The position numbers and the translations under genes are program-made. Source: Archangium sp. (GTDB lineage: Bacteria > Myxococcota > Myxococcia > Myxococcales > Myxococcaceae). Taken from it: DNA of 64,000 nt. The stretch covers positions 64,001 to 128,000 of the forward strand of contig NZ_JANODR010000017.1 of assembly GCF_031412795.1 (NCBI RefSeq). The letters are read 5' to 3'. Below, in pieces: positions 1-14,910 of this stretch. The notes below the pieces were generated by a model. The model saw only the letters and a list, made by a program, of their open reading frames with translations, was not told the DNA's origin and made no database searches. The stretch's first letter is position 1. Each line of letters opens with the position of its first letter.

Positions 1-739
1 GATAACGCAGGCCGAGGAGCTCTTCCGGCTGACGAGCGCCGCCCAGGCCCAGGTGGTCTCCCTCCAGGGGGATGGAAAGCTCCGGGTGGACTCTCCCCAG
101 GGCGCCGGGACGGTGTCGACCTTCCTGGCCGTCTCCCGACCGGGCCTGCTGCGGGTGGAGATGTTCGACTTCTTCAACCGCCCTCTCGCCGTGCTGGTGA
201 CGGACGGGAAACGCTTCGGCCTCTTCCAAGCCCAGGAGAACAAGTTCTACCAGGGGCCTGCCACGCCTCGGAACCTGTCGCGCTTCCTGCCCCTGGCCCT
301 TCCGAGCGAGGAGCTCGTCTCCGTGATGCTCGGCCAGGTGCCCTTCCTGCCCGCCGAGCGCATGACGCTCACGGTGGACGAGAAGGCGCGGCTCTACGTC
401 CTCACGCTCCACCGGGGGGAGGTGTCCCAGGTGCTCGGCATCGAGCCCAAGACGCTCCGGGTGGTGCGCAGCCAGGTTCGCGGGCTCGACACCTATGGGC
501 TCGAGTACGAGAACTTCAAGGACCACGCCGGGGCGCTCCTCCCCCACGAGGTGACGCTCCGGGCCTCCTCGGCGGACACCTCCCTGGGGCTGCGCTACAC
601 CGACATCACCGTCAACGAGGCCCCGGACCTCACGCTCTTCGACCTGTCCGCGCCCGAGGACGTCCCCGTGGTGGATGTGGACGAGGGTGGTCAGGCCCTG
701 CCCCCCGTCGAGCTACCCCCCGCCCGGCCGGATGCCTGA
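1..739 (+). CDS. Partial (5' truncated at window edge) hypothetical protein, LolA/LolB-like (DUF4292-like) fold suspected
   Basis: Frame 2 is open from the window edge through the GTG at 53 to the TGA at 737-739. Coding-like codon usage. Family assignment is from weak memory only. Confidence 0.35.
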   Translation, partial: ITQAEELFRLTSAAQAQVVSLQGDGKLRVDSPQGAGTVSTFLAVSRPGLLRVEMFDFFNRPLAVLVTDGKRFGLFQAQENKFYQGPATPRNLSRFLPLALPSEELVSVMLGQVPFLPAERMTLTVDEKARLYVLTLHRGEVSQVLGIEPKTLRVVRSQVRGLDTYGLEYENFKDHAGALLPHEVTLRASSADTSLGLRYTDITVNEAPDLTLFDLSAPEDVPVVDVDEGGQALPPVELPPARPDA

Positions 740-826
740 CCTGCTCCTCAAGAATTCAGCAATGGTTGGAATCTCAGGTAGAGTGCCCGGACCGGTTGGG
801 TCCGTTCGGACTCCCGCGACTGCGAC

Positions 827-1597
827 ATGGCACAGATCAAGCTTGGCGAACTGCTGATCAAGGCGAACGTGCTCCAGGAGAGCCAGCTCAAGGCGGCGCT
901 CGCGGAGCAGGCGAAGTGGGGCGGGAAGCTGGGAGAGATCCTGGTGCGGATGAACCTCGTGTCCGAGGACATCCTGGTGAGGGCGTTGTCCAAGCAGCTC
1001 GCCATCCCCGCGGTGAACCTGGACGCCGTGAAGGAGATCCCTCCCCACGTGCTCAACCGGGTGCCCGTGCAGACGGCGCGGGACTTCTCGGTGCTGCCGT
1101 TGCAGCTGCGTGACGATGGCAAGACGCTGGTGGTGGCCATCGCGGATCCGCTCAATGTGCGGCAGCTCGATGAGCTGCGCGGCGTCACCAAGTGCCGCAT
1201 CGTGCCGAACGTGGCGGGGCGCACGGCGATCGCCCGGGCCATGGCGCGCTTCTACGAGGAGACGGCGGAGCTGGGCGATGCGGACACCAACTTCAAGGTG
1301 GTGGACTCGCAGGGCCGTACGGTCGTCAAGCACATGAGTGACGTGCCGGGCGCGGCGGCGGTCGCCGCGGCTCCGGCTCCCCCTCCCGCGCCGGCTACGA
1401 CCTCGGCTCCCCGGGGCGCCCTGTCGCGCGAGATTCCGACGGCCCGCGGCGGCGTCAACGCCAGCCCGGTGGAGCTGCTGCGCAGCGTGGAAGAGGTGCA
1501 GCGCAAGGAAGTCGCGGCCCTCAAGGCCATGGTGGAGCTGCTCATCGAGAAGGGCGTCTTCTCGCGCGAAGAGTACCTGGCGAAGGTCAAGCGTTAA
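827..1597 (+). CDS. Stand-alone T2SSE_N / MshEN-domain protein (putative c-di-GMP receptor)
   Basis: ATG at 827. N-terminus KLGELLIKANVLQESQLKAALAEQ and a second copy KLGEILVRMNLVSEDILVRALSKQ match the tandem 24-residue MshEN motif [RK]LGxxLxxxGxxxxxxLxxALxxQ. GspE_N-like region DPLNVRQLDELR. Confidence 0.6.
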   Translation: MAQIKLGELLIKANVLQESQLKAALAEQAKWGGKLGEILVRMNLVSEDILVRALSKQLAIPAVNLDAVKEIPPHVLNRVPVQTARDFSVLPLQLRDDGKTLVVAIADPLNVRQLDELRGVTKCRIVPNVAGRTAIARAMARFYEETAELGDADTNFKVVDSQGRTVVKHMSDVPGAAAVAAAPAPPPAPATTSAPRGALSREIPTARGGVNASPVELLRSVEEVQRKEVAALKAMVELLIEKGVFSREEYLAKVKR

Positions 1598-1618
1598 GCC
1601 GTTCAGCCCCGACCCCGT

Positions 1619-2752
1619 ATGCGCAAGAAGATCGGCGAGCTGCTCATCGAGTCCGGTGCCGTCAATCCGGAGCAGGTCAAAAAGGCGCTCGGCCAGCAGC
1701 GGGCCTTTGGCAGTGGTCAACGGCTGGGCTCGGTCATCATCACCCTGGGCTTTGCCTCGCCCTCGGCGGTGGCGCGGGCCCTGGCGCGCCAGGCGGATCT
1801 GCCCTTCGTGGAGCTGCCAGAGATTCCCGACGGGCTTCGTTCCATCGTCTCCCAGGACTTCCAGGCCGAGCAGCGCATCGTCCCCTTCCGGCTCGAGAAG
1901 GAAGGGCGCAGCGAGCGGCTGCACGTGGCGGTGGATGATCCCTCCGACCTGGCGGCCGTGGACGAGCTGAGCTTCCAGCTCAACAAGCCCATCCGGGTCC
2001 ACGTGGCCGCCGAGGATGACCTCGATCGCGCGCTGGGCCTCGTGCGAGGCCAGGTGGTGGAGGGCATCGCGCTGGAGGACGACACCGGCGAGCCCCTGGA
2101 GCTGGAGGGCTCCTCCGGCATGGTATCGGGCGGCTGGCACGGCCAGGACGCGCGGTCCGACTCGCCCGCCCCCTCGGACAACGCCCTGTTCGACTGGGAC
2201 CTGCCCTCCACCCCGTCGTCGACGTTGGATGACGACGACGACGAAAGTGACATCACCCTCATCACCCCGAGGTCCGCCTTGAAGCCCAAGCCGCCGGCGC
2301 CCCCGGCTCCGCCGCCTATCGACGATGACGATGAGGAGATCACCCTCATCACCCCTCGTGCGTCGGCGAAGCCCAAGGGTGCCCCCGTTCCGCCGCCGCC
2401 TCCTCCCTCGGAGAACGAGGACGTGCTGGACGAACTGCTCGGCGAGGCCGAAGCGGAGCCCGAGACTTCGCCCGCGGCGCCGGGGGGCTCCAACAACTCC
2501 GTGCCGGTGGTCATGTTCGGCGGGGCCGCCAAGGGCGTGCCGACGCCGCCACCGCCCCCCTCGCTCTCCAACATCTCCGAGGAGGACCTGAAGGTGCTCG
2601 AGGACATCGAGCGCATCGCGGATGGTGCCGAGGCGACGCTGCACACGGAGAAGGTGAAGCCCGCACGCATGGTGGCCAGCCTCATCCGCCTCCTCATCAA
2701 GAAGCGCATCATCCGCGAGGAGGAGTTCCTGGAGGAGCTGTCGAGGAAGTGA
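1619..2752 (+). CDS. Stand-alone T2SSE_N / MshEN-domain protein with acidic/Pro-rich internal repeats (paralog of 827..1597)
   Basis: ATG at 1619. N-terminus [24 protein letters not shown] matches the MshEN motif. C-terminal tail LIxKxxxxREEfL is shared with the upstream paralog. Internal direct repeat [28 protein letters not shown]. Confidence 0.6.
2231..2409 (+). repeat. Two tandem copies of an ~90-nt coding repeat ([23 protein letters not shown]) inside the second MshEN protein
   Basis: The string atcaccctcatcaccc occurs twice (about 2252 and 2341), each time flanked by gacgacga and a poly-proline-encoding stretch. Confidence 0.5.
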
Positions 2753-2790
2753 CGCCTCGGGCCGGGTGTTCTGGCCCGGCCGTGAGCCCC

Positions 2791-3783
2791 ATGTCCGAGC
2801 CCCTCCTCGATGTCCGTGGACTGAAGACCCAGCTCTCCCTGGAGGAGGGCCCGGTGCTGGCCGTGGACGACGTGTCCTTCTCCATCCCGCCTGGCGGCAC
2901 GCTGGGCGTGGTGGGGGAGAGCGGCTGCGGCAAGAGCCTCACCGCGCTCTCGGTGATGGGGCTGGTACCGGCGCCGCCTGGCCGAGTGGTGGGCGGGCAC
3001 ATCCGCTTCCGGGGCGAGGACCTGCTCGCGCTGCCCGAGGAGAAGCTGCGCCGGGTGCGCGGGCGCCACCTGTCCATGGTGTTCCAGGAGCCGATGACCT
3101 CGCTCAACCCCGTCTACACGGTGGGCGAGCAGATCGCCGAGGGGGTGCGGCTCCACCAGGGACTGTCCCGGGCCGCCGCGCGCGAGCACTCGGTGGAGAT
3201 GCTGCGGCGGGTGGGCATCCCCGCCCCCGAGCAGCGCGTGGACAGCTACCCCCACCAGCTCTCCGGAGGCATGCGTCAGCGGGTGATGATCGCCATGGCG
3301 CTCGCGTGCGGACCGGAGCTGCTCATCGCGGACGAGCCCACCACGGCGCTGGACGTCACCATCCAGGCGCAGATCCTCGAGCTGCTCAAGCGGCTCCAGG
3401 CCGAGCAACACATGGCGGTGATGCTCATCACCCACGACCTGGGCGTGGTGGCGGAGAGCTGTGACGCGGTGGTGGTGATGTACGCGGGGCGGGTGGTGGA
3501 GCGGGCGCCGGTGAAGGCGCTGTTCCGTCAGCCGGCGCACCCGTACACGGCGGGGCTGCTGCGCTCGATTCCGGCCCTGCACGAGGTGGGTGGGGCAGGG
3601 GAGCGCCCCCGACTGAGGACGATTCCCGGCATGGTGCCGAGCCTGCGCAAGCTGCCCGGGGGCTGCCGCTTCCGAGACAGGTGCGAGCGCGCTCAGGACC
3701 TCTGCGCGCGGGTGGAGCCGGTTCTGGAACTCAAGCGCGATGGCCAGGAGGCCGCGTGCCACAACCCGGTGCCCGCGCCATGA
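2791..3783 (+). CDS. oppD: Oligopeptide/dipeptide ABC transporter ATP-binding protein (OppD/DppD family)
   Basis: Walker A GESGCGKS, signature LSGGMRQR, Walker [13 protein letters not shown]-terminal oligopeptide-type extension PYTAGLL. ATG 2791 is preferred over the GTG at 2749. Confidence 0.85.
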
Positions 3784-4787
3784 CCGAGCCCCTGCTTCAG
3801 GTACGGGAGCTGAAGACGCACTTCCCGATCCGCGGAGGGCTGCTGGGGCGCGTGCGGGGCACGGTGAAGGCGGTGGACGGGGTGGGCTTCGACGTGCGGC
3901 GCGGCGAGACGCTCGGCCTGGTGGGCGAGAGCGGCTGCGGCAAGAGCACGCTGGGGCGCACGCTGCTGCGGCTCGTGGAGCCCACCTCCGGCTCCATCCG
4001 CTTCGAGGGCCGTGAGCTGACGGGCCTGTCCCAGCGCGAGCTTCGTCCGCTGCGCCGGCGGATGCAGCTCGTCTTCCAGGATCCATACGCCTCGCTCAAT
4101 CCGCGCATGTCGGTGCGGGACATCCTCGGCGAGCCCTTCGCCATCCACGGGCTGGCGCGCGGGCGCGAGCGCGAGACGAAGGTGGCCGAGCTGTTGGACC
4201 TGATGGGCCTGCCGCGCGACGCGCTGGAGCGCTATCCGCACGAGTTCTCTGGAGGGCAGCGCCAGCGCATCGGCATCGCCCGGGCGATTGCCCTGAGGCC
4301 GGACCTGGTCGTCGCCGACGAGCCAATCAGCGCGCTGGACGTCTCCATCCAGGCGCAGATCGTCAACCTGCTGGTGGACCTGCAGCGCGAGCTGGGGCTC
4401 ACCTACGTCTTCATCGCGCACGACCTCAAAATCGTGGAGTACGTGTCCACGCGCGTGGCGGTGATGTACCTGGGCCGCATCGTGGAACTGGCGGACGCGG
4501 CGGACCTCTACCGCCGGCCGCGCCACCCGTACACCCAGGCCCTGCTGTCGGCGGTGCCGGTGCCGGACCCCGAGCACAAGCGCTCGCGCATCATCCTCCA
4601 GGGGGACGTGCCCTCTCCGCTCGCGCCGCCGCCCGGGTGCACCTTCCATCCCCGGTGCCCGTACGCCATGGAGCGGTGCCGGCGCGAGACGCCGCCTCTC
4701 TACACGCTGGACAACGGGCACACCGCCGCGTGCTTCCTCGTGGAGGAGGACGCGCGGAAGGCCCCATCCCCCATTTCCGGAGGGTAG
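3780..4787 (+). CDS. oppF: Oligopeptide/dipeptide ABC transporter ATP-binding protein (OppF/DppF family)
   Basis: [29 protein letters not shown]-terminal PYTQALL..CxxxxRC motif. ATG 3780 overlaps the oppD TGA (ATGA coupling). Confidence 0.85.
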
Positions 4788-4788
4788 G

Positions 4789-5196
4789 GTGTTCTGGCTC
4801 AGTCACCACCATGAGGACGAGTACAACCGCACGTACCTGCTCGGCGGGGTGCGCGTGTGCGCGCGCTGCCTGGGGACATACCCGGTGCTGGTGGCGGTGA
4901 TGATGGGCCTCTTCGCCCTCCGCGCGCCGCTGGCGTGGCCCTGGGACGTGCCGGTGGTGCTCGGCCTCACGCTGCCGGCGCTCGTGGACTGGGCGGTGGG
5001 GCGCTTTCGTCCGGCCAGCGGCACCAACACCGTGCGCACCCTCACGGGCGTGCTGCTGGGTGCGGCGCTGGGCCGCTCGTTGTTCGTCCACCTCCAGAAG
5101 CCCCTGCCGCCGATGCTGGTGTGGCAGGGCGCCCTGGTGCTGGTGGTCGCGCTCCCCGTCCTGTTCTTGAGCTCCAGGGGCTCGCGGAACGGGTAG
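4789..5196 (+). CDS. Small polytopic membrane protein (DUF2085-like)
   Basis: GTG at 4789 lies 1 nt after the oppF stop. CxxC motif VCARCLG followed by hydrophobic helices. Confidence 0.4.
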   Translation: MFWLSHHHEDEYNRTYLLGGVRVCARCLGTYPVLVAVMMGLFALRAPLAWPWDVPVVLGLTLPALVDWAVGRFRPASGTNTVRTLTGVLLGAALGRSLFVHLQKPLPPMLVWQGALVLVVALPVLFLSSRGSRNG

Positions 5197-5205
5197 GCGG
5201 GCGCC

Positions 5206-5769
5206 TCAGTCCTCGGTGAGGTACTTCAGGATCTCGTCCGCGTCCTGGGAGACCAGCCGTTTGACGCCATCCCGTCGGGCATGACGCTGGACCTGCATCT
5301 GGCCCACGGTGCTCCGCACGAGCACGCCGATCTTCCGGAAGCCGCCGATCCAAATGGGGCGGAGGCGGGCGAGGGCTTCTTCGAACTGGGGATCGTTCCT
5401 GCCAGGGGTGGCCCGGATATCGGAGAAGAGCCCATAGCGTGGGCGGTCCAACGTATCCAGGACGCTCCCGAGCCGCGCGAAGAGGCCGTCGAGTTCCTCG
5501 ATCGCGCCAAATGGTTTGTCGCTACGAATGGTGTGGACGATGCGCTTCCGCTCGTCCACGAGCACGGTGAAGTACTCGTCCTGGAAGATCTGCCGGGTAG
5601 TCGAAGAGAGGCCCACTATCGTCCCTGTACCGCGTCGCGATGCGCCATGAACAGTGACATGGTGGGCGGCAGGGACGGAAGACGCGTCGCCCGGTTGCTC
5701 GCCCTCCCTCCGGGGGCGGGGCCTGCTGCACGGGTGACAAGCGGTGGCGCTCCCTGTCATTCTCGCCAC
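5206..5769 (-). CDS. Hypothetical protein, start uncertain
   Basis: Open minus-strand frame. The C-terminal ~135 aa (from IVGLSSTTRQIFQDEYFTVLVDERKRIV) look protein-like. There is no in-frame ATG near that core, so the start may be a GTG, or the N-terminal 50 codons may be non-coding. Confidence 0.3.
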   Translation of the reverse strand: MARMTGSATACHPCSRPRPRREGEQPGDASSVPAAHHVTVHGASRRGTGTIVGLSSTTRQIFQDEYFTVLVDERKRIVHTIRSDKPFGAIEELDGLFARLGSVLDTLDRPRYGLFSDIRATPGRNDPQFEEALARLRPIWIGGFRKIGVLVRSTVGQMQVQRHARRDGVKRLVSQDADEILKYLTED

Positions 5770-5902
5770 TTACCGAGGGCCAAAAATCGGGTAGACCCTG
5801 GCGCCCCACCGTCCGTTGTAAGGAAGCGATGGAGGGGTGAGGACAGGTACGAGGCCCTGAAACGGGGGACTGTTGGGACCGGGAACCTCAGACGAACGGC
5901 TG

Positions 5903-6502
5903 ATGCTCGCCTTCCGGGCGGGGGATGCTCGTGCGTTCGAGGTGCTGGTGCGAAGGCACCGGACGCCGGTGTTCAACTTCATCCTGCGTTTCACCGGCCA
6001 CCGTGCACGGGCGGAAGACGTGCTTCAGGAGACGTGGCTCAAGGTGGTTCGCAGCGCGTCGGAGTACGAGGCGAAGGCGAAGTTCACCACTTGGGTCTAC
6101 ACGATTGCGAGGAACCTCTGCGTGGACAGCGCGCGCAAAGAGAGCTACCGGCAGACGGCCTCGCTGGAGGCGTCCGTGACGGGTGCCGAGGGCGACGAGA
6201 GTCGTCCGCTGGGTGAGTCGCTCCCGGACGAGGGCGTGAGCCCCGAGCGTGGCGCCTACAACGCCCGGCTGCGGCCCCTGCTGGAGCGCGCGCTCGCCGG
6301 CCTGCCGGAGGAGCAGCGCGAGGTCTTCGTGCTGCGCGAGTACAGCGGCATCCCCTTCAAGGAGATCGCCGAGGTGACGGGTGTGTCCGAGAACACGGTG
6401 AAGAGTCGCATGCGCTATGCCCTCGAGGGCCTGCGTCGGCGCCTGGCCGAGCTCGGGGTGGATGGGGACCTGGCAGAGGACGGAAGGACGGTGGCGGGAT
6501 GA
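5903..6502 (+). CDS. ECF-type RNA polymerase sigma factor (sigma-70 family, group 4)
   Basis: Region 2 FNFILRFTGHRARAEDVLQETWLKV.. and region 4 EQREVFVLREYSGIPFKEIAEVTGVSENTVKSRMRYAL. ATG 5903 is preferred; TTG 5873 is possible. Confidence 0.85.
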   Translation: MLAFRAGDARAFEVLVRRHRTPVFNFILRFTGHRARAEDVLQETWLKVVRSASEYEAKAKFTTWVYTIARNLCVDSARKESYRQTASLEASVTGAEGDESRPLGESLPDEGVSPERGAYNARLRPLLERALAGLPEEQREVFVLREYSGIPFKEIAEVTGVSENTVKSRMRYALEGLRRRLAELGVDGDLAEDGRTVAG

Positions 6503-7851
6503 AGCCGCAGGGTTCCCATGCGAACGAGGATCGGCTGCTGGACTTCGCCTATGGCGAGCTGCCGCCGTCCGAGGCCCGGGTGATGGAGCAGCACGTGCTG
6601 GGGTGCTCGCGCTGCTCCGAGGCGCTCGACGGCATTCGAGGCGTGCGCACCACCATGTCGCGGCTGCCGCTGCACTCGGCGCCGGAGGCGGGACTGGAGT
6701 CGTTGCTGGCCTACGCGCAGCAGGCCGCGCGCCGGTCCGCGGCGGGCCCCGAGCCCGCGCCCCGCTGGTGGCGTCGCCTGCTGGCGCCCGCGCTGAGCAT
6801 GGCGGCGCTGGGCGTCTTCGGCATCGTGGTCGTCCAGGTGAACCGCTCGGTGGACCTCAGCCCCACGCTCACCACCAAGAAGGAAGCCCCGGCGGAGATG
6901 GCGATGCGCCCGGAGCCCGCGAAGAACGCGCCGCTGCCGATGACCCAGGCCGTGCCCGCCGCCGCGGCCCCCTCGGCCCCCTCGCCCGAAACCCAGGTGC
7001 TCCACCAGCAGATGGACAAGCGCATGCAGGCTGAAATGCGCACCCCTCCTTCGAAGAAGGCGCCCAAGGTGATGCGCCGCGGGGAGTACTCGGACTGGTC
7101 CAACGCGGGCGCGGGCAGCGCGGGTGGCTTCCCGGACAAGAAGGAGGAGGCCGCGAAGTCCAAGGACGGGCTGGCCTCCAGCGGAAGGACCCGGAACACC
7201 CTGGCCACGGCGCAACCCGAAGCCGCCCCCGCGGGCAACGTGGCTCCAGCGGATGCGGAGGAGTCCCGGGTCGCCGAGGCCGCGTCCGCGCCCATGCCCA
7301 GCGCGCCCCAGCAGGTGGCGCAGTACACGCCGCCGTCCAGCCCGGCGCCGCGGGCGAAGAGCTCCGCTTCACGTACGTCGTCGAAGGGGAGCATGGCGGA
7401 CGCTGACGACGTGGCGCTGGCCCCCGGACGCGACCAGCTGCCGATGCCCGCCGAGCCGCCACCTCCTCCCGCCGCGCAGGCACAGGGGGTGGAGCGGGAA
7501 GCCAAGGCGGACGTCGTCGCGCGCAAGTCCGAGGCGAAGCCCGCCACCGCGAGCAGTGCCCCGTCTCCGACGGAGCTGCTGCGCCAGGCGGACATCGCCA
7601 ATCGCTCGGGGGACAGGGCACAGGAGTCCGCGCTGCTGCGTGGGGCGCTGTCCGCGGGCGTGAGGGGGAGTCAGCGGGTGGAGACGCTCTCTCGGCTGTG
7701 TGAGGCGGAGCTGGCGCTGGGCCGCCGGCAGAACGCCCTGGAGTTTTGCAAGCGGGTGATGTCGGAGGCGCCCGGCTCGAGCGAGGCGCGCGTCGCGCAG
7801 CGGCTGCTGGAGCGCGAGCTGGCGTCCGAGGCGGACGCGGCCAGGCAGTAG
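6499..7851 (+). CDS. Anti-sigma factor, ZAS-like zinc-finger N-terminus, single TM, Pro/Ala-rich periplasmic region and TPR-like C-terminus
   Basis: ATGA overlap with the sigma factor stop. HVLGCSRCSEAL (H-x3-C-x2-C) anti-sigma motif. TM segment LLAPALSMAALGVFGIVVV. Confidence 0.7.
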   Translation: MKPQGSHANEDRLLDFAYGELPPSEARVMEQHVLGCSRCSEALDGIRGVRTTMSRLPLHSAPEAGLESLLAYAQQAARRSAAGPEPAPRWWRRLLAPALSMAALGVFGIVVVQVNRSVDLSPTLTTKKEAPAEMAMRPEPAKNAPLPMTQAVPAAAAPSAPSPETQVLHQQMDKRMQAEMRTPPSKKAPKVMRRGEYSDWSNAGAGSAGGFPDKKEEAAKSKDGLASSGRTRNTLATAQPEAAPAGNVAPADAEESRVAEAASAPMPSAPQQVAQYTPPSSPAPRAKSSASRTSSKGSMADADDVALAPGRDQLPMPAEPPPPPAAQAQGVEREAKADVVARKSEAKPATASSAPSPTELLRQADIANRSGDRAQESALLRGALSAGVRGSQRVETLSRLCEAELALGRRQNALEFCKRVMSEAPGSSEARVAQRLLERELASEADAARQ

Positions 7852-7854: not shown

Positions 7855-8616
7855 TCAGTGCGAGCCGTGCCCCTCCGCCTCGGTAGGAGGAGGCGGCGGC
7901 AGGTCGGGGTTGTAGGCGCCGCTGAGGATGAGGAACTCTCCGCCAGGCTGCTTCAAGCGCGAGGCCTCGCCCTCGGGCGAGATGCCGACCGCGTGGATCT
8001 CATAGGCCGCGCCGCCCTCCAGCACATAGACGAGCAGGGTGCCGGGAGGAGCGTCCGCGGGGAGCGCGTCGGGCGAGGCCACCTTCTGGAGGCGGAAGGG
8101 CAGGGCGCCGAAGGAGCGTGTGTGGATGGTGGTGGGCTGGCCCTGGGTGAGCTGCGTGAGGGCCTGCCGCCAGGAGTCCTCGTCCTCGGGGATGGAGCCA
8201 TGCTTCTGCAGCTCGCTCACGGTGCGGCCGTGAAGCTCGCGAGCCACCCGGAGGACCTTCAGGTTGGCGGCATCGGAGTTGCGCCCCACGGCGGGGCCCT
8301 CCCGGTTTGCCCAGGTGGCGAGCGGGACGGCGGCGAGGATGAGCCCGGACCAGAGGAGGTGGGCGCTTCGCGCGCGCACGGCCTGCACGAGGACGACGCT
8401 CAGGCCCACCAGCGCCATGAGCGCGGCGATCACGAGCAGGAGCCGGGGCGGCGTTCCCGGACTGTAGGGCTGGAGCTGTGAGCGGGCGAGGTGCCGCAGC
8501 TCAGGCCAGGCTCCCACCAGGGTGATGGCGGCGAACCCGGCGAAGACGAGTGCGTGCAGCACACGGAGCGGCAGCGGGGAGGGCTGCCGCGAGGCGGTGG
8601 AGGACGACTTCTTCAC
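7855..8616 (-). CDS. Inner-membrane protein of unknown function, last gene of the pilin operon
   Basis: Three hydrophobic helices. Its ATG overlaps the pilin stop (ATGA on the minus strand). Its stop lies 3 nt from the convergent anti-sigma stop. Confidence 0.5.
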   Translation of the reverse strand: MKKSSSTASRQPSPLPLRVLHALVFAGFAAITLVGAWPELRHLARSQLQPYSPGTPPRLLLVIAALMALVGLSVVLVQAVRARSAHLLWSGLILAAVPLATWANREGPAVGRNSDAANLKVLRVARELHGRTVSELQKHGSIPEDEDSWRQALTQLTQGQPTTIHTRSFGALPFRLQKVASPDALPADAPPGTLLVYVLEGGAAYEIHAVGISPEGEASRLKQPGGEFLILSGAYNPDLPPPPPTEAEGHGSH

Positions 8617-8828
8617 GGGAACGGCAGGTTCAGCACCATGTAGAACGAGTCGTAATAGACCTGGTACGCCCGGAGGAACAGGTTGATGACGTTCCCCCTG
8701 CCGAACACGTCCGAGCTCAGCATCAGCACGAGCGCGAGGACGAGGATCCAGTTGATGAAGGAGTACTCCACCATGGCCTGGCCACGGGGGTGACGGCGGA
8801 GCTGCTTGAGGGTCGCGGGGCTCTTCAT
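8613..8828 (-). CDS. Flp/Fap-type (type IVb/c) prepilin, 71 aa
   Basis: MKSPATLKQLRRHPRGQAMVEYSFINWILVLALVLMLSS contains the Flp motif G/xxxxEY followed by a hydrophobic helix. GGAGGA Shine-Dalgarno (minus-strand coordinates 8840-8835) lies 6 nt before the ATG. The ATG overlaps the upstream gene stop. In the six-frame track this gene appears only as the tail of an artefactual 339-aa ORF. Confidence 0.65.
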   Translation of the reverse strand: MKSPATLKQLRRHPRGQAMVEYSFINWILVLALVLMLSSDVFGRGNVINLFLRAYQVYYDSFYMVLNLPFP

Positions 8829-9646
8829 GGGCGGTCCTCCTGCGAATCGGCTTCGGGCTCCGGCGCGGCGTCCGGATCCGGTTGCATCCAGGCCGGCAGG
8901 TTGCTGGCCGGCTCCAAGGTCATCTTCTTGTCGCCCGGGGCGGGCAACACCATGCGCGGCCTGGCGTCCACACCGTAGTCGCGCACCTCCATCGTATACC
9001 GGACGGAGGGGAATTCGATCTTCGCCAGGCGGAGCAGGGGAATCTCCCGGCTCATCCAGTAGCGCTTGAGGACGAGGTTGCCGCGGTAGATGACCTCCAT
9101 GGGCTCGGCCGTCACGGTGCCGGCGAGCGTCATGAGGCGCGCGGGCTTGCCGCGCTTGACGACGGTGTCCTTGCCGGCGGCGGTCTGCGCCGCGGACGGG
9201 GCGGCGCCGGGGCGGGTCGTCTCCGAGGGCTTCTCCTTGCCGGACTCGCTGAGGAAGTATGGCATGGCGTCCTTGTCCACCTCCTGGAGCTTCTCGAAGC
9301 CCTGGGTGACGAACAGCCGGGAGATGCCCTCGGGGCGAATGCCCGTCTCGCGGGCCACCAGCATGAGGAACTGCCCCATGGGGGCCTTCATCGCCGGGTG
9401 CAGGCCGAACTCCACCTCCAGCCACACCGCGTCGCGGTTCTGCGCGTCCTTCTGCTCGCTGACGACGGCCATGCGCATGAAGCCCTGACGGACTCCATCC
9501 ATCTGGTACGTCACCCACTCGCCCACGCGCGCGTCCAGCTGCGGGGGGGCGGCCTCGAAGAGCATCCGCCCCTCGGTCGACATCTGCGGCTGCGCCGGAG
9601 CGGCTCCCAGCAGCGTCAGGGTCAGGGCACACACCAGCGCGCTCAT
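8825..9646 (-). CDS. Secreted protein of unknown function (signal peptide) encoded between minor pilins and pilin
   Basis: Start MSALVCALTLTLLGAAPAQP is signal-peptide-like. The 5' end overlaps the preceding gene by 4 nt and the 3' end overlaps the pilin start by 4 nt. Confidence 0.55.
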   Translation of the reverse strand: MSALVCALTLTLLGAAPAQPQMSTEGRMLFEAAPPQLDARVGEWVTYQMDGVRQGFMRMAVVSEQKDAQNRDAVWLEVEFGLHPAMKAPMGQFLMLVARETGIRPEGISRLFVTQGFEKLQEVDKDAMPYFLSESGKEKPSETTRPGAAPSAAQTAAGKDTVVKRGKPARLMTLAGTVTAEPMEVIYRGNLVLKRYWMSREIPLLRLAKIEFPSVRYTMEVRDYGVDARPRMVLPAPGDKKMTLEPASNLPAWMQPDPDAAPEPEADSQEDRP

Positions 9647-10419
9647 GGCTTCTTCTCCTTCACGAGGCCCTGGCGCATGGCGGCCTCGCGCGCCTGGCGC
9701 ACCGCGTCCGCGTTGGGCATGCCATCCGGCCGATCCGTCCCCACCCACGACTGGGAGACGGCCACCCGAGCGCTCTCCAGCTCCACCAGCGTGGTCATGG
9801 ACTGCTCGGGCCCGCGCGCGTACTCGAGCACCAGGGTGCGCTGCCCATCCAGCTTGCCTCCGGACTCACGCACCGGCTTGTAGCCCGCGCTGGTGTACTT
9901 GTTGGCCAGCTCCTGGCGCACCTCATCCATCGTGCGCTCCACGATCTGCGTGCTGTGCCGCGAGCCGCCCGCCTCGTCTCGCGAGCCCACGTCCGCGCTG
10001 AAGAGCGGGCCCTCCACGCGGATCATCTTGTCCTGCCCGGCGGAGGGCGGCTTCTCGTACAGCCAGAGATCCTTGAGCACGGTGAAGCCCACCGTCTTGC
10101 CCATGTGCTTGCGCAGCACCACCGCCCGCTGCAGCCCCTCGCGGGTGAAGAAGGCGGCGACGACTCCCTCCTCCTCCAGGTCCCCGTCGACGACGACGGG
10201 GTAGCCCTGCTTGTTCCAGTACTCGGCGAAGTACTTCGCCACCTTCTCCATGGAGTCCTTCGTGGTGAAGTACGCCATGCGGTGGTACTGGCCGTTGATC
10301 AGCAGATCATTGCCGATCCGCGTGTGGGCGGTGCCCGGGTACACCGCGAGCTCCTGCTCCGCCCATGACGGAGAGGCCCACAGCGACACCAGGAGGAGCG
10401 TGAGGATCGTTACTCGCAC
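9643..10419 (-). CDS. Secreted protein of unknown function (signal peptide)
   Basis: MRVTILTLLLVSLWASPSWAEQ signal peptide. Overlaps the upstream TadE-like gene by 10 nt. Confidence 0.55.
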   Translation of the reverse strand: MRVTILTLLLVSLWASPSWAEQELAVYPGTAHTRIGNDLLINGQYHRMAYFTTKDSMEKVAKYFAEYWNKQGYPVVVDGDLEEEGVVAAFFTREGLQRAVVLRKHMGKTVGFTVLKDLWLYEKPPSAGQDKMIRVEGPLFSADVGSRDEAGGSRHSTQIVERTMDEVRQELANKYTSAGYKPVRESGGKLDGQRTLVLEYARGPEQSMTTLVELESARVAVSQSWVGTDRPDGMPNADAVRQAREAAMRQGLVKEKKP

Positions 10420-11552
10420 GTGATCTTGTTCTTGTTCTTGTCTTTGTTGGTGCTGGGATCCATGGCGGGCGTGTTGGGCATGTCCGCCATCTGGTTCTTG
10501 CAGCCCATGAAGTGCTCGCCGCGCGACTCGAACATCTTGATGTAGAGCGACGAGGCGTACGCGGCGGTGTCACGGAAGGGCGCGGTGTCGAAGCAGCGCT
10601 GCGGATCCTCGTCGAGGCCCGGGTACTTGTTCACGTTCTGCAGACCCGGGTGCGAGGGGTGCGAGGGCGTGTTGCAGTCCTGGCCGCCCGTGCCCGGCGT
10701 GTAGTTGTGCGCTACCACGAAGGTTCCCATGAAGTCCGGCAGGAAGAAGTTCGTCACCGAGCTGATGCGGTCCAGACCGATCTGGCTCAGGTAACCACTT
10801 ATACCAAGGAACTTCATCCGGCCCACCTGACGGAACATGCCGTGCTCCGAGCCACCGTCGTGCACGCCTGCTCGCTTGGGCTTCACGAGCGCGTCACCGC
10901 CGTCGGGCAGGTGCCAGCCGTTGGCGATGAGCGTGTAGCGGTTGCCGATCGGCAGGTTGCTCAGGTCTCGGCCACCCCAGTTGTCCACGGAGTAGAAGCC
11001 GCGCGACTCGCGCTGCAGGTAGCGACGGGGCAGCAGCAGCGACGCCAGGCTGCTGTTGACCTGCACCTGCACCTGGCCCTTGGTGTTGAACTTGAAGTGG
11101 TTGAGGAAGAAGTTGTAGCCCTTGCCGATCGCGCTGGACACCTCGGCGCCCGCACCGCCCGAGGGCATGACCCAGCTCAGGTCGATGCCCTGCACCGCCT
11201 GATTGGTGATGCTCACCTCCACCGGCGAGGGGCGCAGCATGATGGCGTAGCTGCCCCCGTTGGGCTCCAGGGAGTTGTAGTCCTTGTAGCGCTCGTTGGC
11301 CTCTTCCACCGTGGCCTGCATGGCGGTGGTGAAGGCCTTGTCGTGGTCGGCCTCGCCGTAGTCGCTCAGCGCGTAGCTGGTCATCTCCCAGGCCACGTAA
11401 CGCGAGGCCTCCTGGAGCTTGATCTTCGCGAGGACGATCTCCGTGAGGAAGATGCTGAACATCAGGATGGAGGTCAGCAGCGGCACCACGAGCGCGAACT
11501 CGACGGTGGCGGCACCGCGCCGGGAGCTCTTCTGTAGGCGATTGCGGAGCAT
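10410..11552 (-). CDS. TadE-like minor pilin/pseudopilin with large C-terminal domain (~380 aa)
   Basis: N-terminus MLRNRLQKSSRRGAATVEFALVVPLLTSILMFSIF is the TadE-like signature (GxAxVEFAL..P). ATG at 11552 is chosen rather than the ORF-track start at 11657. Confidence 0.7.
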   Translation of the reverse strand: MLRNRLQKSSRRGAATVEFALVVPLLTSILMFSIFLTEIVLAKIKLQEASRYVAWEMTSYALSDYGEADHDKAFTTAMQATVEEANERYKDYNSLEPNGGSYAIMLRPSPVEVSITNQAVQGIDLSWVMPSGGAGAEVSSAIGKGYNFFLNHFKFNTKGQVQVQVNSSLASLLLPRRYLQRESRGFYSVDNWGGRDLSNLPIGNRYTLIANGWHLPDGGDALVKPKRAGVHDGGSEHGMFRQVGRMKFLGISGYLSQIGLDRISSVTNFFLPDFMGTFVVAHNYTPGTGGQDCNTPSHPSHPGLQNVNKYPGLDEDPQRCFDTAPFRDTAAYASSLYIKMFESRGEHFMGCKNQMADMPNTPAMDPSTNKDKNKNKITCE

Positions 11553-11560
11553 GGCGGGCC

Positions 11561-13645
11561 TCAATGGGTGATGATCTTCGCCGGCGCGTCCTTGACGGCC
11601 GCGGGCAGCGCGTTGGCCAGCTGGTTGACGAGCGGCAACGACTCCTTGCCCTGCCACACGGCCGCCAGACGGGGCCGCCAGTAGGGGTTGAAGAAGTTGG
11701 GGTGCTCGGTCCAGTTGCCGGGCCGGTGGTAGTACGTCTGGCCGCGCGAGATGACGCTCATGCCCGAGGCCACGGAGAAGCCGGCGACCTCCAGCTTCTT
11801 GCGGTCGTTGTCCAGCTCCAGCGTCGCCGAGCCGCCGAAGTTGAAGGTGAGGCTCGAGCTGCCGTTGAGCCGGGACACGTCGTTGTGCGTGGCGCCCGTC
11901 GGATCGGCCCCCGTGTTGTGCAGCTCCTCCGAGTCCTTGTTGAGCATCACCCAGGCGGAGGGCTGGTTGAAGTCATGCTCGCGCTTGGCGGCCTGGTTGA
12001 TGCTGGCCTCGCCCTTCTTGGCCTGACCATTGTTGCAACTGCTGCACGAGCCGCCGCTGCCGCCGCCCGAGCTGTTGCCCCCCGGGTTGAGGCCCGCGCA
12101 GTCCCGCGCGTAGTCGCCCGGCTCGAAGTGGGGGAAGGGCGCCAGGCCCTCCCACGGGTGGTTGTTGTCCCGATCGTCGATGCGGACGTTGGCCGAGTAC
12201 ACATCCACCGAGAAGGGGCAGAGCCAGTCCGGCACGAAGGGGACCACGCACACCTCGTCCTTGTAGAGGCCCACGTTGGTGTCCGCCCTGCTGGCACCGC
12301 CGCTGTTCCTGAAGATGACCCGCCAGTGGATGCCGTTGCGGCGCAGATCCCTGTCGCTCATGGACCAGATGCTGGGCTTGAGCATGTCGTTGGGCTCCTC
12401 GCGCGGATCGCCCCAGCAGTGCCTGTAGTCGCGCTTGTCGTTGAGGATGCCTCCGGGCTCCTTGGGGCAGCTGAAGGGGTTGATCAGACCGATGTTGGAG
12501 GGGCCGATCTTGATGTAGTAGGTGTCGTCCGCGCCGATCACGTCACCCTGGGCCATCATGCCCATGGGGCTGCCGGGCGGATCGCGGTGCTCGCGGATCT
12601 TGTTGCGGCCCGTCCTGGGGCTCGCGGTGCCGTAGCCGAGCCGGTAGGTGAGCATGCGCGTCTGGCCCCACTTGGGGAAGCTGTTGAGCATGCTCTCCAG
12701 CGGCTGGAGCCAGCTGGGGATGGGCAGCAGGTCGCCCAGCTTGCGCGAGGTGACGAACGTCTCCGGGCAGATGCCCGAGCTGGCGTTGCAAGGGAAGCGC
12801 GTGGCGTTGCTGATGCCGCCCATCACGCGCTTGGCGCGCGAGACCTTGTCCCGCTCGTCGCGCTTGGTGGGATCCAGCGCGTCGAAGGGCTTGTACTTGC
12901 CCGTGAGCACCTGGCCGGGCGCGACGGTGGTCTCGTCGTAGTGCGTGCGGTTGAAGAGACACTGGTTGATGAGGCCCGCCAACGTCTGGGGGATGAACGA
13001 GTCCACGTGTGGATCGTTGGCCGCGATGATGGTGTTGGAGGTGCCCATCACGTAGGACGAGGAGGCCATCATCACCGCCACGGCCGCGCCTGACATGACG
13101 GCATTGAGCAGGCGATGGCCTGGGACCACCACCTTTCCGATGGCCCGGTCGATGAAGTCCATGCCCTGCTTCAGGAGGAGCAGCATCTTCTGGAGCACGG
13201 TGAAGATCGTGTTGATGACCCTCATCAGGGCTCCGATCCACGGCAAGACGTCCAGCACGGCGCAGATGATCTTCCATCTGCCCTTCCGGCTGTCCTTGGG
13301 GAAGCACGGGCCGATGGTGCGCATGAACCCGTAGATGTCCGTGAGGAAGGCCTGGACGAAGAAGATGAACGAGTTCAGCGACTGCCAGAGCATCGCCGAC
13401 ACGTAGTGCGACACCTGGGTGCGGTTGGTGAACGCGTAGAAGTTGAAGGCGCGCGCCTCCATGGCGGCCGTGGAGTAGGCCGCGGCGTCCGCCGTGTTCT
13501 GCAGGCGGATGCGCTCGTGCACGTTGTGCCCGATGTTGACGGTGGTGAGGAGCGCGATGCTCAGGATGAGCATCAGCAGACAGGCCATCACGAGCGCCTG
13601 TCCTTCCTGGCGCTGGAGGCTGCGACGAAGAGCGCGGGTCATCAT
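11561..13645 (-). CDS. TadG-like protein (Tad_N N-terminal domain), 694 aa, Cys-rich C-terminal region
   Basis: QEGQALVMACLLMLILSIALLTTVNIGHNVHERIRLQNTADAAAYSTA matches the Tad_N (TadG-like N-terminal) pattern. Gly/Ser/Cys-rich loop NSSGGGSGGSCSSCNNG. No VWA motif was recognised. Confidence 0.7.
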   Translation of the reverse strand: MMTRALRRSLQRQEGQALVMACLLMLILSIALLTTVNIGHNVHERIRLQNTADAAAYSTAAMEARAFNFYAFTNRTQVSHYVSAMLWQSLNSFIFFVQAFLTDIYGFMRTIGPCFPKDSRKGRWKIICAVLDVLPWIGALMRVINTIFTVLQKMLLLLKQGMDFIDRAIGKVVVPGHRLLNAVMSGAAVAVMMASSSYVMGTSNTIIAANDPHVDSFIPQTLAGLINQCLFNRTHYDETTVAPGQVLTGKYKPFDALDPTKRDERDKVSRAKRVMGGISNATRFPCNASSGICPETFVTSRKLGDLLPIPSWLQPLESMLNSFPKWGQTRMLTYRLGYGTASPRTGRNKIREHRDPPGSPMGMMAQGDVIGADDTYYIKIGPSNIGLINPFSCPKEPGGILNDKRDYRHCWGDPREEPNDMLKPSIWSMSDRDLRRNGIHWRVIFRNSGGASRADTNVGLYKDEVCVVPFVPDWLCPFSVDVYSANVRIDDRDNNHPWEGLAPFPHFEPGDYARDCAGLNPGGNSSGGGSGGSCSSCNNGQAKKGEASINQAAKREHDFNQPSAWVMLNKDSEELHNTGADPTGATHNDVSRLNGSSSLTFNFGGSATLELDNDRKKLEVAGFSVASGMSVISRGQTYYHRPGNWTEHPNFFNPYWRPRLAAVWQGKESLPLVNQLANALPAAVKDAPAKIITH

Positions 13646-13649
13646 GGGT

Positions 13650-14627
13650 TTACAGGCCCCAGCTGGGCTTCAGGTGCATCAGCCACTTGTAGTAGAAGTT
13701 CGACTGCATCCGCATGCTGTAGGTGGCCGTCAGCGGGATGAAGTAGCGCTTGCCGCCGATGAGGCCCGACAGGATGGGGATGTCCCCGCTGGCCACCGCC
13801 CACAGCACGGCCATCTCCACCTGGTAGAGCGTGTTGTAGCCGCGCTCGTGCCGGATGCCGCGGATGGGCACGAACTTCACCTGGCTCATGCCACCGCTGC
13901 GGTGGGTCATGCTCGTGTTGCGCTGGAGCGTGGGCCGGTCGATGGCGCCGTACAGCGACACCCCGGCGTTGGCCGCCCACCACGCGGTGAAGATGACCCA
14001 GTTGGCGAAGGGCACCTTCAGCTCGTACCAGTAGCGCAGGCGGATGCTCAGCACCGTGGCCTTGCGGTACGTCTCCTCGCCGTCGTCCGGAATCGACAGG
14101 TTGAAGAACTTGGCGATCTTCTGCTCCAGCTCCGGCACCTGCGGGTAGGCGTCCGGTCCGTCGAAGTCCAGCTCCTTCCAGTTGTAGCCCGTGCGCAGCT
14201 TCCACACGCTCCCGATGGAGTCGTACCAGGACGGGTTCACCGTATCGATGCGCACCTGGCCGAACAGGTTGGAGCCGTTGACGGTGGCCGGGATGATCCC
14301 GTTCTTGTTGGGCCACGCCAGCAGCTGCAGCGCCTCGTCATAGGCCTGGGCGATGGCCCACGTCTTTCCCAGCTCGAAGAGGGAGTCGGTGCGGCCCATG
14401 GTGGGCAGCAGCGCGATGATGGCGGCGTCCTTCATGCGCTCGTTGCTGCCGTTCCACACGATGCCCGTGCGCGCCGCGCTGTACGCCGCGTACTCGGTCA
14501 TGATCTTCGCGTGCTGCATCATCGTCAGCTGGATGATGCCCAGGCACATGAAGGTCATGAGCGGCAGCACCAAGGCGGATTCGACGGCGGCCTGACCTGA
14601 TTCCCTGGATTTGACGGGAGTAAGCAT
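13650..14627 (-). CDS. TadE-like minor pilin/pseudopilin (325 aa), first gene of the minus-strand operon
   Basis: ESGQAAVESALVLPLMTFMCLGIIQL is a TadE-like N-terminus. A 283-bp divergent intergenic region lies upstream. Confidence 0.7.
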   Translation of the reverse strand: MLTPVKSRESGQAAVESALVLPLMTFMCLGIIQLTMMQHAKIMTEYAAYSAARTGIVWNGSNERMKDAAIIALLPTMGRTDSLFELGKTWAIAQAYDEALQLLAWPNKNGIIPATVNGSNLFGQVRIDTVNPSWYDSIGSVWKLRTGYNWKELDFDGPDAYPQVPELEQKIAKFFNLSIPDDGEETYRKATVLSIRLRYWYELKVPFANWVIFTAWWAANAGVSLYGAIDRPTLQRNTSMTHRSGGMSQVKFVPIRGIRHERGYNTLYQVEMAVLWAVASGDIPILSGLIGGKRYFIPLTATYSMRMQSNFYYKWLMHLKPSWGL

Positions 14628-14802: not shown

Positions 14803-14910
14803 ATCGCACCCCGCTGGCGCCCAGGGCTCGCGCCACTCGTAACTCCGACACACCCAACGAGTTTCGCCGCCACCGCCTGGACGCCCCCCGCTTTTGGAGG
14901 TCCTCGAGAC

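Follow-up and report, generated by a model that had tools for sequence, protein, structure and literature searches.

The window studied here, a 64-kb stretch of DNA from Archangium sp., carries two tandem genes for MshEN-domain proteins, designated P1 and P2. They lie in a row of plus-strand genes that begins with a LolB-like lipoprotein gene and extends through two ABC transporter ATPases and a predicted membrane protein to an ECF sigma factor and an anti-sigma factor (Table 1). Tandem MshEN ORFs had been placed at 827–2752 by the initial annotation, and they were confirmed with the exact limits given in the table. The codon usage of both genes (GC3 of about 0.9, GC1 higher than GC2) is typical of real genes in a genome of about 70% GC. 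Two antisense ORFs on the minus strand, 713–2644 (643 aa) and 1717–4086 (789 aa), were considered high-GC shadow frames and rejected, because GC by codon position speaks for the genes on the plus strand. P1 and P2 are best explained as diverged tandem paralogues located in the cytoplasm.

The LolB-like gene is found upstream of P1 in nearly all loci compared. The −10-like hexamer between these two genes, TAGAGT, is mostly retained in the loci of Archangium, Cystobacter, Myxococcus and Pyxidicoccus, some of which have the variants TACACT or TAAAAT. Its position fits the Cappable-seq TSS located 5 nt upstream of MXAN_4667, the orthologue of P1 in M. xanthus, and the hexamer is probably a promoter element of P1. 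A scan of positions 600–6000 for sigma-70 consensus promoters found none. In M. xanthus, operon 24 of Kuzmich et al. begins with MXAN_4667 (TSS at −5 of this gene) and ends with MXAN_4661; it includes the ECF sigma and anti-sigma genes and has an internal TSS.

The OppD-type gene may start with a GTG codon in a 4-nt overlap with the P2 stop, and an alternative ATG is located at 2791. The Walker A, signature, Walker B and H-loop motifs of OppD are intact, and its C-terminus is Cys-rich; OppF likewise retains intact catalytic motifs. Genes for the permeases and the substrate-binding protein (SBP) are absent both from this locus and from the whole window, which contains the ATPase half of the transporter only.

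Table 1. Features of the P1–P2 locus; nucleotide positions are those of the window
Feature	Position (nt)	Strand	Protein residues	Remarks
LolB-like / DUF4292 lipoprotein gene	53–739	+		Pfam DUF4292, 35.4 bits
−10-like hexamer TAGAGT	779–784	+		Upstream of P1, conserved in alignment
P1	827–1597	+	256 aa	Orthologue of MXAN_4667 (M. xanthus)
P1 MshEN head	827–1267	+	1–147	
P1 motif I, spacer and motif II	839–997	+		Motif I 839–910, spacer AKWGG, motif II 926–997
P1 disordered linker	1268–1459	+	148–211	Ala/Pro-rich
P1 conserved helical tail	1460–1594	+	212–256	...ELLRSVEEVQRKEVAALKAMVELLIEKGVFSREEYLAKVKR; two predicted helices (214–241, 247–255)
P2	1619–2752	+	377 aa	Orthologue of MXAN_4666
P2 MshEN head	1619–2044	+	1–142	
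P2 motif I, spacer and motif II	1628–1792	+		Motif I 1628–1699, motif II 1721–1792
P2 disordered linker	2045–2578	+	143–320	Pro/Asp/Ser-rich
Two repeats of about 30 aa in the P2 linker	2228–2407	+	204–233, 234–263	Protein level
P2 helical tail	2579–2749	+	321–377	
OppD-type ABC ATPase	2749–3783	+		Pfam ABC_tran and oligo_HPY
OppF-type ABC ATPase	3780–4787	+		Pfam ABC_tran and oligo_HPY
DUF2085 predicted membrane protein	4789–5196	+		Pfam, 40 bits; synteny
ECF sigma factor	5873–6502	+		Pfam; orthologue of MXAN_4662
zf-HC2 anti-sigma factor	6499–7851	+		Pfam; orthologue of MXAN_4661

Head, linker and tail of P1 and P2

The Pfam MshEN model (PF05157, cut-off 23.1 bits), proposed at the outset as a check, matched P1 with 58.8 bits and P2 with 55.8 bits. 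The NCBIfam model NF053729 ("c-di-GMP_motif", cut-off 38) matched them with 64.8 and 52.5 bits, respectively. MshEN was the sole Pfam match and no ATPase family was detected by Pfam in either protein, in agreement with the initial annotation. The NCBIfam PilB/GspE equivalog models matched over their N-terminal 100–160 positions only (61 vs. a cut-off of 675), and partial matches of the NfrB models covered the same domain. Lacking the C-terminal T2SSE ATPase domain with its Walker A/B motifs, P1 and P2 are not members of the secretion ATPases.

AF2 models feature confident MshEN folds over the heads of both proteins (residues 1–147 of P1 and 1–142 of P2, pLDDT about 90). The models and the Foldseek comparison agree in a four-helix bundle N-subdomain followed by an alpha/beta C-subdomain, as in the MshEN fold. 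The P1 model aligns with c-di-GMP-bound MshE (5HTL) with a TM of 0.85 and an rmsd of 2.1 Å (Foldseek, E = 2e-9).

The proteins had been described as consisting essentially of the MshEN domain, which proved too narrow a description. Both share an architecture of an MshEN head, a variable disordered linker and a strongly conserved C-terminal helical tail of about 45 aa, and this architecture is new. Most positions of the P1 tail are at least 95% conserved in 65 orthologues, and its pLDDT is 83–89. The P1 tail was aligned by hhalign to motif positions 2–22 with a probability of 84.5% and an E of 6.9e-6. The tail family comprises 243 protein-cluster representatives among 1.84 billion, and an MshEN head is present in 69 of its 77 longer members. 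The tail had no match in Pfam, even at an E of 10. An assignment to a known PDB domain was rejected: the profile matches were sums of armadillo-repeat helix matches of about 3.5 bits each, i.e., noise, because of which HEAT-repeat proteins appeared in the library search with the tail.

The linkers vary, and P2-type proteins of relatives range in length from 292 to 1835 aa. The acidic/Pro-rich repeats noticed earlier in P2 do exist at the protein level as two copies, and no tandem signal is present in the DNA. The region is an alignment gap in most orthologues and is predicted to be disordered (pLDDT below about 56). The repeats were therefore rejected as a functional element and are treated as a lineage-specific expansion of the linker.

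Tandem motifs and predicted c-di-GMP binding

The c-di-GMP-binding subtype of MshEN is recognised by two tandem 24-residue motifs, (R/K/L)LGxxhhxxGhhxxxxLxxxLxxQ, separated by a short spacer. Six-frame screening of the 64-kb window for the motif pattern yielded four matches, all of them in P1 and P2. Both motif copies reported initially are indeed recognisable in each protein, with their contact positions conserved. In P1, motif I is K5-LGELLIKANVLQESQLKAALAEQ-28 and motif II, after a 5-residue spacer, is K34-LGEILVRMNLVSEDILVRALSKQ-57. P1 matches the pattern except for position 10, which is Asn and not Gly/Ala/Ser, and it fails the relaxed regex of Wang et al. at this position alone. In P2, motif I extends from K4 to residue 27 and motif II from R35 to residue 58; both the strict and the relaxed patterns are matched, and the 7-residue spacer is the same as in Geobacter PilB. 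Each motif has its full set of six ligand-contact positions in both proteins. The K/R at position 1 fits the extended consensus; Lys at this position is compatible with high affinity and is reported to predict it (PMC11731258).

The alignment check suggested with the first description was carried out with 56–70 orthologues, and the contact positions are far more conserved than the remaining domain. All 65 P1 orthologues aligned have K/R at position 1, L at 2, G at 3, L at 21 and Q at 24, and 63–65 of them have L at 17; at position 10 they have N/K/R or N/S/E, with Gly absent throughout. The mean entropy of the P1 contact positions is 0.12 bits, compared with a head mean of 0.65 (1 in 20,000 random column sets). 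The corresponding values for P2 are 0.51 bits at the contact positions vs. 1.73 at the "x" positions, which none of 20,000 random column sets equalled. The 50 P2 orthologues show no variation at K1, G3 and G10 of motif I or at G3, L21 and Q24 of motif II. Position 1 of motif II is R/K in all 50 and position 10 is Gly in 49; Q24 of motif I is retained in 30. The Asp aligned with Asp108 of MshE is also invariant in P2 orthologues. This selective conservation of the ligand-contact positions is new.

The initial suggestion that both are stand-alone MshEN proteins and candidate c-di-GMP receptors is supported by the contact positions and their conservation, and binding itself is very probable on sequence grounds. 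The receptor prediction is not new, having been made for the M. xanthus orthologues in Wang et al. 2016. MXAN_4666 and MXAN_4667 appear in Supplementary Table 3 of that work in a column with proven binders, a meaning of the column suggested by the proteins listed there together; FrgA (MXAN_1130), a different gene, stands in another column of the table. Both orthologues are also among the 17 MshEN genes of Kuzmich et al. 2022. Their locus tags occur in the main text of no paper in the literature searched, and the main text of the M. xanthus capture-compound paper contains no list of MshEN hits. MXAN_4667 and MXAN_4666 are direct orthologues of P1 and P2 with the same sizes, order and neighbours, and the N-terminus of MXAN_4667 matches P1; their published record consists of the domain call only.

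The heads may alternatively have ceased to be c-di-GMP sensors and serve as protein–protein adaptors only, like the N-domains of XpsE/GspE, with the motifs conserved for structural reasons. Several Leu positions of the motifs also build the core of the helix bundle, neither motif of P1 has the consensus Gly at position 10, some MshEN-like domains are known not to bind (XpsE, PilF GSPII-A) and N-domains of the same fold bind PilZ and GspL (7lko, 4pht). However, conservation extends beyond the core Leu residues to the ligand-specific surface positions K/R1, G3 and Q24, which are invariant or nearly so. None of the substitutions reported to abolish binding in XpsE (G11V, R38G, G40L, L54H, L58C, Q61V) is found in P1 or P2, and both pass NF053729. 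We consider the loss of sensing improbable.

Conserved neighbourhood of the pair

The P1–P2 gap has a median of about 9 nt across loci. The gene order LolB-like–OppA–OppB–OppC–P1–P2–OppD–OppF–DUF2085 is found in about 20 deep-branching relatives. The LolB-like gene is the first gene of this operon and overlaps the start of oppA (an overlap with the SBP gene is seen in loci L059 and L081), and OppC ends roughly 20–70 nt upstream of P1. This Opp-operon gene order of P1/P2 in relatives is new. In Archangium, Myxococcus and closer relatives, the locus is devoid of OppABC, and P1, P2, OppD and OppF are still found together. DUF2085 follows OppF in every lineage examined. Sampling by the tail alone gave a similar picture: five of six family members directly adjoin Opp permease and/or ATPase genes. 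Location between Opp permease and ATPase genes was thus observed across lineages, in the approximately 20 deep-branching loci and in five of the six sampled contigs, and this arrangement, with short or overlapping junctions, persists down to 53–60% P1 identity. Comparison with relatives shows the pair to be part of the operon of a peptide-type ABC transporter and not of the Kil machine close by.

The initial annotation pointed to a neighbouring Tad-like locus and to a hybrid kinase with a degenerate GGDEF domain. The adjacency to the former, Kil cluster II, is real and conserved, but the connection is weaker than was implied, the pair being tied more tightly to the Opp/Dpp operon. The kinase is the orthologue of SgmT; it is encoded at a distance of 28 kb and has no specific connection with the pair.

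Gene order alone does not distinguish the ABC-operon reading from a connection with the ECF sigma genes or the Kil genes nearby.

A role in the adjacent Tad-like Kil predation machine was considered, where the pair would supply in trans the c-di-GMP-sensing N-domain that a Tad-type ATPase lacks. Kil cluster II genes (TadE/TadG minor pilins, or CpaB–TadB–TadC–FHA) follow the anti-sigma gene in every locus of sufficient length, including those of deep lineages, and type IV filament ATPases are the usual targets of MshEN. According to the Kil paper, MXAN_4648–4661 are needed for contact-dependent killing, and MXAN_4661, the final gene of that region, also closes the M. xanthus operon that begins with MXAN_4667. 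However, MXAN_4666/4667 lie just outside cluster 2 (MXAN_4648–4661), are not in cluster 1 (MXAN_3102–3108) and encode no domain of a Tad family. Between the pair and the pilus genes there are invariably five to seven others (two ATPases, DUF2085, sigma and anti-sigma; more in Archangium). The minor-pilin genes face one way or the other depending on the genus, while the pair keeps its orientation. The Kil paper assigns the core Tad homologues to two separate clusters, and the cluster II part of the window yielded no ATPase gene. In development, MXAN_4666 and MXAN_4667 fall mildly (log2FC −0.4 to −0.8), while the kil clusters are reported to be starvation-induced, and c-di-GMP is mentioned in neither of the two Kil papers. 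The one tie suggested between the pair and Kil is conserved neighbourhood, which is the weaker link, and this role has a low probability.

The neighbourhood could also be inherited synteny with no functional coupling, the targets being elsewhere (e.g., PilB/T4P, EPS or development). Myxobacteria have 17–22 MshEN proteins, mostly with no assigned target, and synteny is not very discriminating because the whole 20-kb block is conserved. Yet the insertion of the pair between permease and ATPase genes has outlasted divergence to 53–60% P1 identity, and the pair survived the deletion of OppABC next to the ATPases, which leaves mere synteny with only a small chance. It is very improbable that the pair feeds a c-di-GMP signal to the ECF sigma/anti-sigma module, e.g., by binding the cytoplasmic zf-HC2, with the ABC genes as bystanders or signal input: the sigma and anti-sigma genes do follow DUF2085 in nearly all loci and share the M. 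xanthus operon call, but the sigma gene has its own internal TSS, variable insertions of roughly 1.9–5.6 kb separate it from DUF2085 in Archangium relatives, and no precedent was found.

Putative regulation of the Opp-type ATPases

The explanation we tentatively prefer, and regard as quite possible, is that P1 and P2 are c-di-GMP-sensing accessory components of an Opp/Dpp-family ABC operon and act on OppD/OppF. The MshEN head would be the ligand sensor, with c-di-GMP bound by its four-helix part, the disordered linker would be a freely evolving tether and the C-terminal helical hairpin would serve as an output or docking element. Binding of c-di-GMP would alter the engagement of the OppD/OppF heterodimer by the tethered tail and/or the head, and the ATPase and transport activity would thereby be coupled to the c-di-GMP level. 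We infer both the choice of OppD/OppF as partners and the direction of regulation. A strict model with one sensor per ATPase fails, because a MAG locus in which P2 is missing (L055) retains both ATPases.

Control of ABC importers through their ATPases has examples among other signals: EIIAGlc acts on MalK, and c-di-AMP acts on the CBS domains of OpuC-type ATPases. In both cases, as proposed for P1/P2, a cytoplasmic signal on the ATPase subunits gates import; the messenger and the sensor fold are different. To our knowledge, there is no such example for c-di-GMP, and none was found in the literature searched, nor was any link between MshEN and an ABC transporter.

P1 and P2 resemble V. cholerae MshE (5HTL) and the GSPII-B domain of T. 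thermophilus PilF in fold and in the tandem 24-residue motifs, and their Lys at position 1 is shared with the high-affinity PilF GSPII-B. The domains of MshE and PilF, however, are the N-termini of GspE/PilB-type secretion ATPases, whereas P1 and P2 have no ATPase domain and feature a disordered linker, a unique tail and an ABC-transporter operon, as well as Asn for Gly at position 10 in P1. E. coli NfrB, a glycosyltransferase with a C-terminal MshEN domain, shows that c-di-GMP can act allosterically through MshEN on outputs that are not secretion ATPases. The sensor and output of NfrB are fused in one chain, whereas P1 and P2 are separate from their presumed output, the ABC ATPases encoded next door. 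In the PilZ–FimX–PilB complex of Xanthomonas citri (7LKO), a trans-acting c-di-GMP receptor/adaptor docks on an ATPase, and the fold of the PilB N-domain is that of the P1 head. There, however, FimX (EAL domain) is the sensor, the MshEN-like domain is the docking site and the ATPase acted upon is that of a pilus and not of an ABC transporter.

A bolder form of the proposal, which we regard as doubtful, would make this the first c-di-GMP-gated ABC importer, with two tethered MshEN adaptors docking on OppD/OppF via the C-terminal hairpin. In the crown group (Myxococcus/Archangium), the module of sensors and ATPases would have been freed from the permease and might have taken on a new role, in which an ATPase signalling unit under c-di-GMP control acts on the adjacent DUF2085/ECF sigma/Kil block. 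If true, this would link prey killing to nutrient uptake.

If the preferred reading of P1/P2 as accessory components of the Opp-type ATPases fails, they are two more catalogued MshEN paralogues. The analysis nevertheless defines a head–linker–tail subfamily with an unannotated output element and places the pair in a conserved block beside the Kil predation machine. Almost none of the 17–22 MshEN proteins of M. xanthus has an assigned target, and two of them are now offered a concrete partner, the Opp-type ABC ATPases. If the reading is true, it would extend c-di-GMP control to ABC importers and would offer a way to tie second-messenger signalling to the uptake of nutrients by a bacterial predator.

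Architecture of the MshEN pair

The P1 and P2 ORFs lie in the same frame of the same strand, 21 nt apart, and both show the codon-position GC of real genes (the GC-content of the window is about 70%). Both proteins match Pfam MshEN (58.8 and 55.8 bits, respectively; cut-off 23.1) and the NCBIfam domain NF053729 'c-di-GMP_motif' (64.8 and 52.5 bits; cut-off 38), and the Pfam and NCBIfam profile search detected no ATPase domain in either. The nearest solved structures are the N-domains of T. thermophilus PilF, Geobacter and Myxococcus PilB and V. cholerae MshE. AF2 predicts MshEN folds with confidence, and the head of P1 superimposes on c-di-GMP-bound MshE (5HTL) with a TM of 0.85 and an rmsd of 2.1 Å. 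The initial annotation of a tandem pair of stand-alone MshEN proteins is thus correct. Its description of MshEN as essentially the whole protein does not hold, as it overlooked a conserved C-terminal tail.

Both proteins share a three-part architecture, which is a new point: the MshEN head is followed by a disordered linker of low complexity and then by a conserved tail of about 45 aa. Most positions of the P1 tail (...EEVQRKEVAALKAMVELLIEKGVFSREEYLAKVKR) are at least 95% conserved across genera, and the P2 tail is collinear with it. The tails are modelled by AF2 as helices, with pLDDT 83–89 for P1 and less confidently for P2. Linker length is free to vary: P2-type proteins of relatives range from 292 to 1835 aa, with head and tail constant. 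The acidic/Pro-rich repeats reported for P2 are present as two protein-level copies in the linker, but are missing from most orthologues. The acidic or Pro-rich, low-complexity linkers of P2-type proteins reach up to about 1600 aa, with extreme growth in loci L065, L071, L074, L075 and L081; the 1835 aa L075 gene (L075:10754 onward) carries three tandem copies of the tail motif.

A tail profile search retrieved 243 proteins among 1.84 billion representatives, nearly all matching at the extreme C-terminus. The MshEN head was found in 69 of the 77 longer matches, the remainder being mainly HEAT/ARM-repeat noise. The tail has no match in Pfam or PDB. Since hhalign aligns it with positions 2–22 of the 24-residue c-di-GMP motif (probability 84.5%, E 6.9e-6), without the K/R-L-G start, it looks like a degenerate third hairpin. 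We infer that the tail may be an output or docking element rather than a ligand site.

Conservation of the c-di-GMP motifs

The extended MshEN motif consensus is (R/K/L)LGxx(L/V/I)(L/V/I)xxG(L/V/I)(L/V/I)xxxxLxxxLxxQ; very high affinity is reported where position 1 is Lys or Leu, and c-di-GMP binding is weakened or lost when Gln24 is changed to Glu (PMC11731258). In MshE, replacing Gly3 abolishes binding (PMC5013675). Each protein carries two motif copies, as had been recognised, and the 64-kb window contains no instance beyond these four. In 65 P1 orthologues, positions 1 (K/R), 2 (L), 3 (G), 21 (L) and 24 (Q) of both motifs are invariant and position 17 is Leu in 63–65. The sole departure from the consensus is at position 10, where motif I has N/K/R and motif II has N/S/E, and Gly never occurs. 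The fast-evolving P2 retains Gly10 and every motif II contact position, but Gln24 of motif I drifts (Q in 30, K in 10, R in 6 and G in 3 of 50 orthologues). The mean entropy of the twelve P2 contact columns is 0.51 bits versus 1.73 at 'x' positions, matched by none of 20,000 random sets of head columns; for P1 it is 0.12 versus a head mean of 0.65, and one of 20,000 random sets was as low. The Asp aligned with MshE Asp108, the only C-subdomain ligand contact, is invariant in P2. None of the substitutions blamed for XpsE binding loss occurs in P1 or P2. The ligand-contact positions of the motifs are selectively conserved, and together with profiles and fold they make both proteins sound candidate c-di-GMP receptors. 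Judging from sequence, P2 quite probably binds c-di-GMP; binding by P1 is predicted with somewhat less assurance because of the Asn10 change.

This candidacy is an existing bioinformatic prediction, published before, since the M. xanthus orthologues of P1 and P2, MXAN_4667 (251 aa) and MXAN_4666 (338 aa), are already listed. The MXAN_4667 N-terminus printed in Wang et al. 2016 matches P1, and in their table both proteins share a column, read here as that of likely binders, with the proven binders MshE, PA3740, Bd2402 and NfrB. Kuzmich et al. 2022 include both among 17 MshEN genes. The main texts of the searched literature do not mention either locus tag.

Genomic context of the pair

The order LolB-like, P1, P2, OppD, OppF, DUF2085, ECF sigma, anti-sigma is near-universal in 80 related loci, where identity to the window proteins is 53–94% for P1 and 33–84% for P2. 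The median P1–P2 spacing is about 9 nt, and the P2 stop overlaps a possible OppD start. In M. xanthus, Kuzmich et al. 2022 report a single operon, MXAN_4667-4666-4665-4664-4663-4662-4661, with a strong TSS 5 nt 5′ of MXAN_4667 and a second, internal TSS ahead of the ECF sigma gene.

Features of the window and of one related locus
Feature	Position	Strand	Remarks
P1 ORF	827-1597	+	256 aa
P2 ORF	1619-2752	+	377 aa
OppD and OppF ATPases	2749-4787		catalytic motifs intact
ORF without family match	5206-5769	-	187 aa; only in closest relative L001, 68% identity
Three genes without Pfam family	7855-8616, 8825-9748, 9643-10419	-	between anti-sigma gene and minor pilins, Archangium
TadE/TadG/TadE minor pilins	10410-14627	-	part of Kil cluster II orthologue
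CpaB, TadB, TadC, two FHA genes	14794-21007		part of Kil cluster II orthologue
GAF-HisKA-HATPase-REC-GGDEF protein	30913-33414	+	SgmT orthologue (MXAN_4640)
Very large multi-domain glycosyltransferase gene	47450-51991	+	1513 aa; GT2 + WsaF-like + GT1
Very large multi-domain glycosyltransferase gene	52047-54392	-	781 aa; GT4 + GT2
REC-HD-GYP protein	L008:2287-3561	-	related locus L008; about 7 kb upstream of P1, outside window

About 20 deep-branching loci (P1 identity 53–67%) carry the full importer set OppA (SBP_bac_5), OppB and OppC directly upstream, with the OppC end about 20–70 nt before the P1 ATG; in some, the LolB-like gene overlaps the oppA start. OppABC is absent from the locus and 10 kb either side wherever P1 is at least 70% identical (Archangium including the window, Cystobacter, Hyalangium, Myxococcus, Corallococcus, Pyxidicoccus and related MAGs), and the 64-kb window holds no permease or SBP gene. 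In these crown loci, P1-P2-OppD-OppF is unbroken and the ATPase catalytic motifs are intact. Because the deep-branching relatives (L047–L078) have oppABC directly upstream of the pair, the crown group seems to have lost exactly oppABC and kept catalytically intact ATPases. Five of six family members chosen solely by tail profile have the Opp context, and the contig of the sixth is too short to judge. The Opp ATPase link is the pair's tightest and most persistent association; it is new relative to the initial annotation, and no MshEN–ABC transporter connection was found in the searched literature.

Compared with Myxococcus, where P1 mRNA is essentially leaderless (TSS at −5), Archangium and Cystobacter have an extra ~42 nt (window 785–826) between a conserved TAGAGT and the P1 ATG, containing the inverted repeat GGACCGG..GGGTCC. 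No Shine-Dalgarno sequence is evident ahead of P1 or P2. Between DUF2085 and the ECF sigma gene lies a site of variable insertions: in Myxococcus and Cystobacter the two gene starts are about 0.5 kb apart, in some Archangium loci up to about 6 kb. The REC-HD-GYP protein of L008 is probably the orthologue of MXAN_4675, an M. xanthus gene catalogued as HD-GYP, and divergent ExbB/ExbD genes adjoin the LolB-like gene; the wider region thus has several c-di-GMP-related genes.

Possible roles of the pair

The counterpart of M. xanthus Kil cluster II, a cluster required for contact-dependent prey killing, lies at window positions 10410–21007. The Kil genes come 3′ of the anti-sigma gene wherever a locus extends far enough, so this neighbourhood is conserved, and the pair might regulate Kil in trans. 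However, such regulation is unlikely: at least five genes always intervene, the minor pilins change strand from genus to genus (Archangium opposite to Myxococcus), c-di-GMP is unmentioned in both Kil papers and the reported expression trends differ, MXAN_4667/MXAN_4666 expression being steady with a slight fall in development (Kuzmich et al. 2022). The SgmT orthologue has a degenerate A-site, GEGVL, with RxxD (RTPD) five residues upstream, consistent with an I-site-type c-di-GMP receptor. It is 28 kb from the pair with nothing specific linking them. The initial interpretation is partly supported: receptor candidacy holds, but the Tad link is one of neighbourhood only.

We consider it similarly improbable that P1 and P2 are c-di-GMP-independent adaptors, and doubtful to the same degree that the neighbourhood is mere inherited synteny with targets elsewhere. 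That the pair feeds the adjacent ECF sigma/anti-sigma pair is less likely still.

The reading built on the ABC ATPases is the best supported, though it is put forward tentatively. The missing membrane half of the transporter in the Archangium lineage weighs against it, as does the L055 MAG (L055:4193-6050), where P1 leads directly into OppD and the P2 gene is absent; at least one lineage seems able to do without P2, barring an assembly artefact. P1 and P2 may be accessory regulators of Opp-type ATPases, in which the heads would sense c-di-GMP, the disordered linker would act as a tether and the tail would serve as a docking element.
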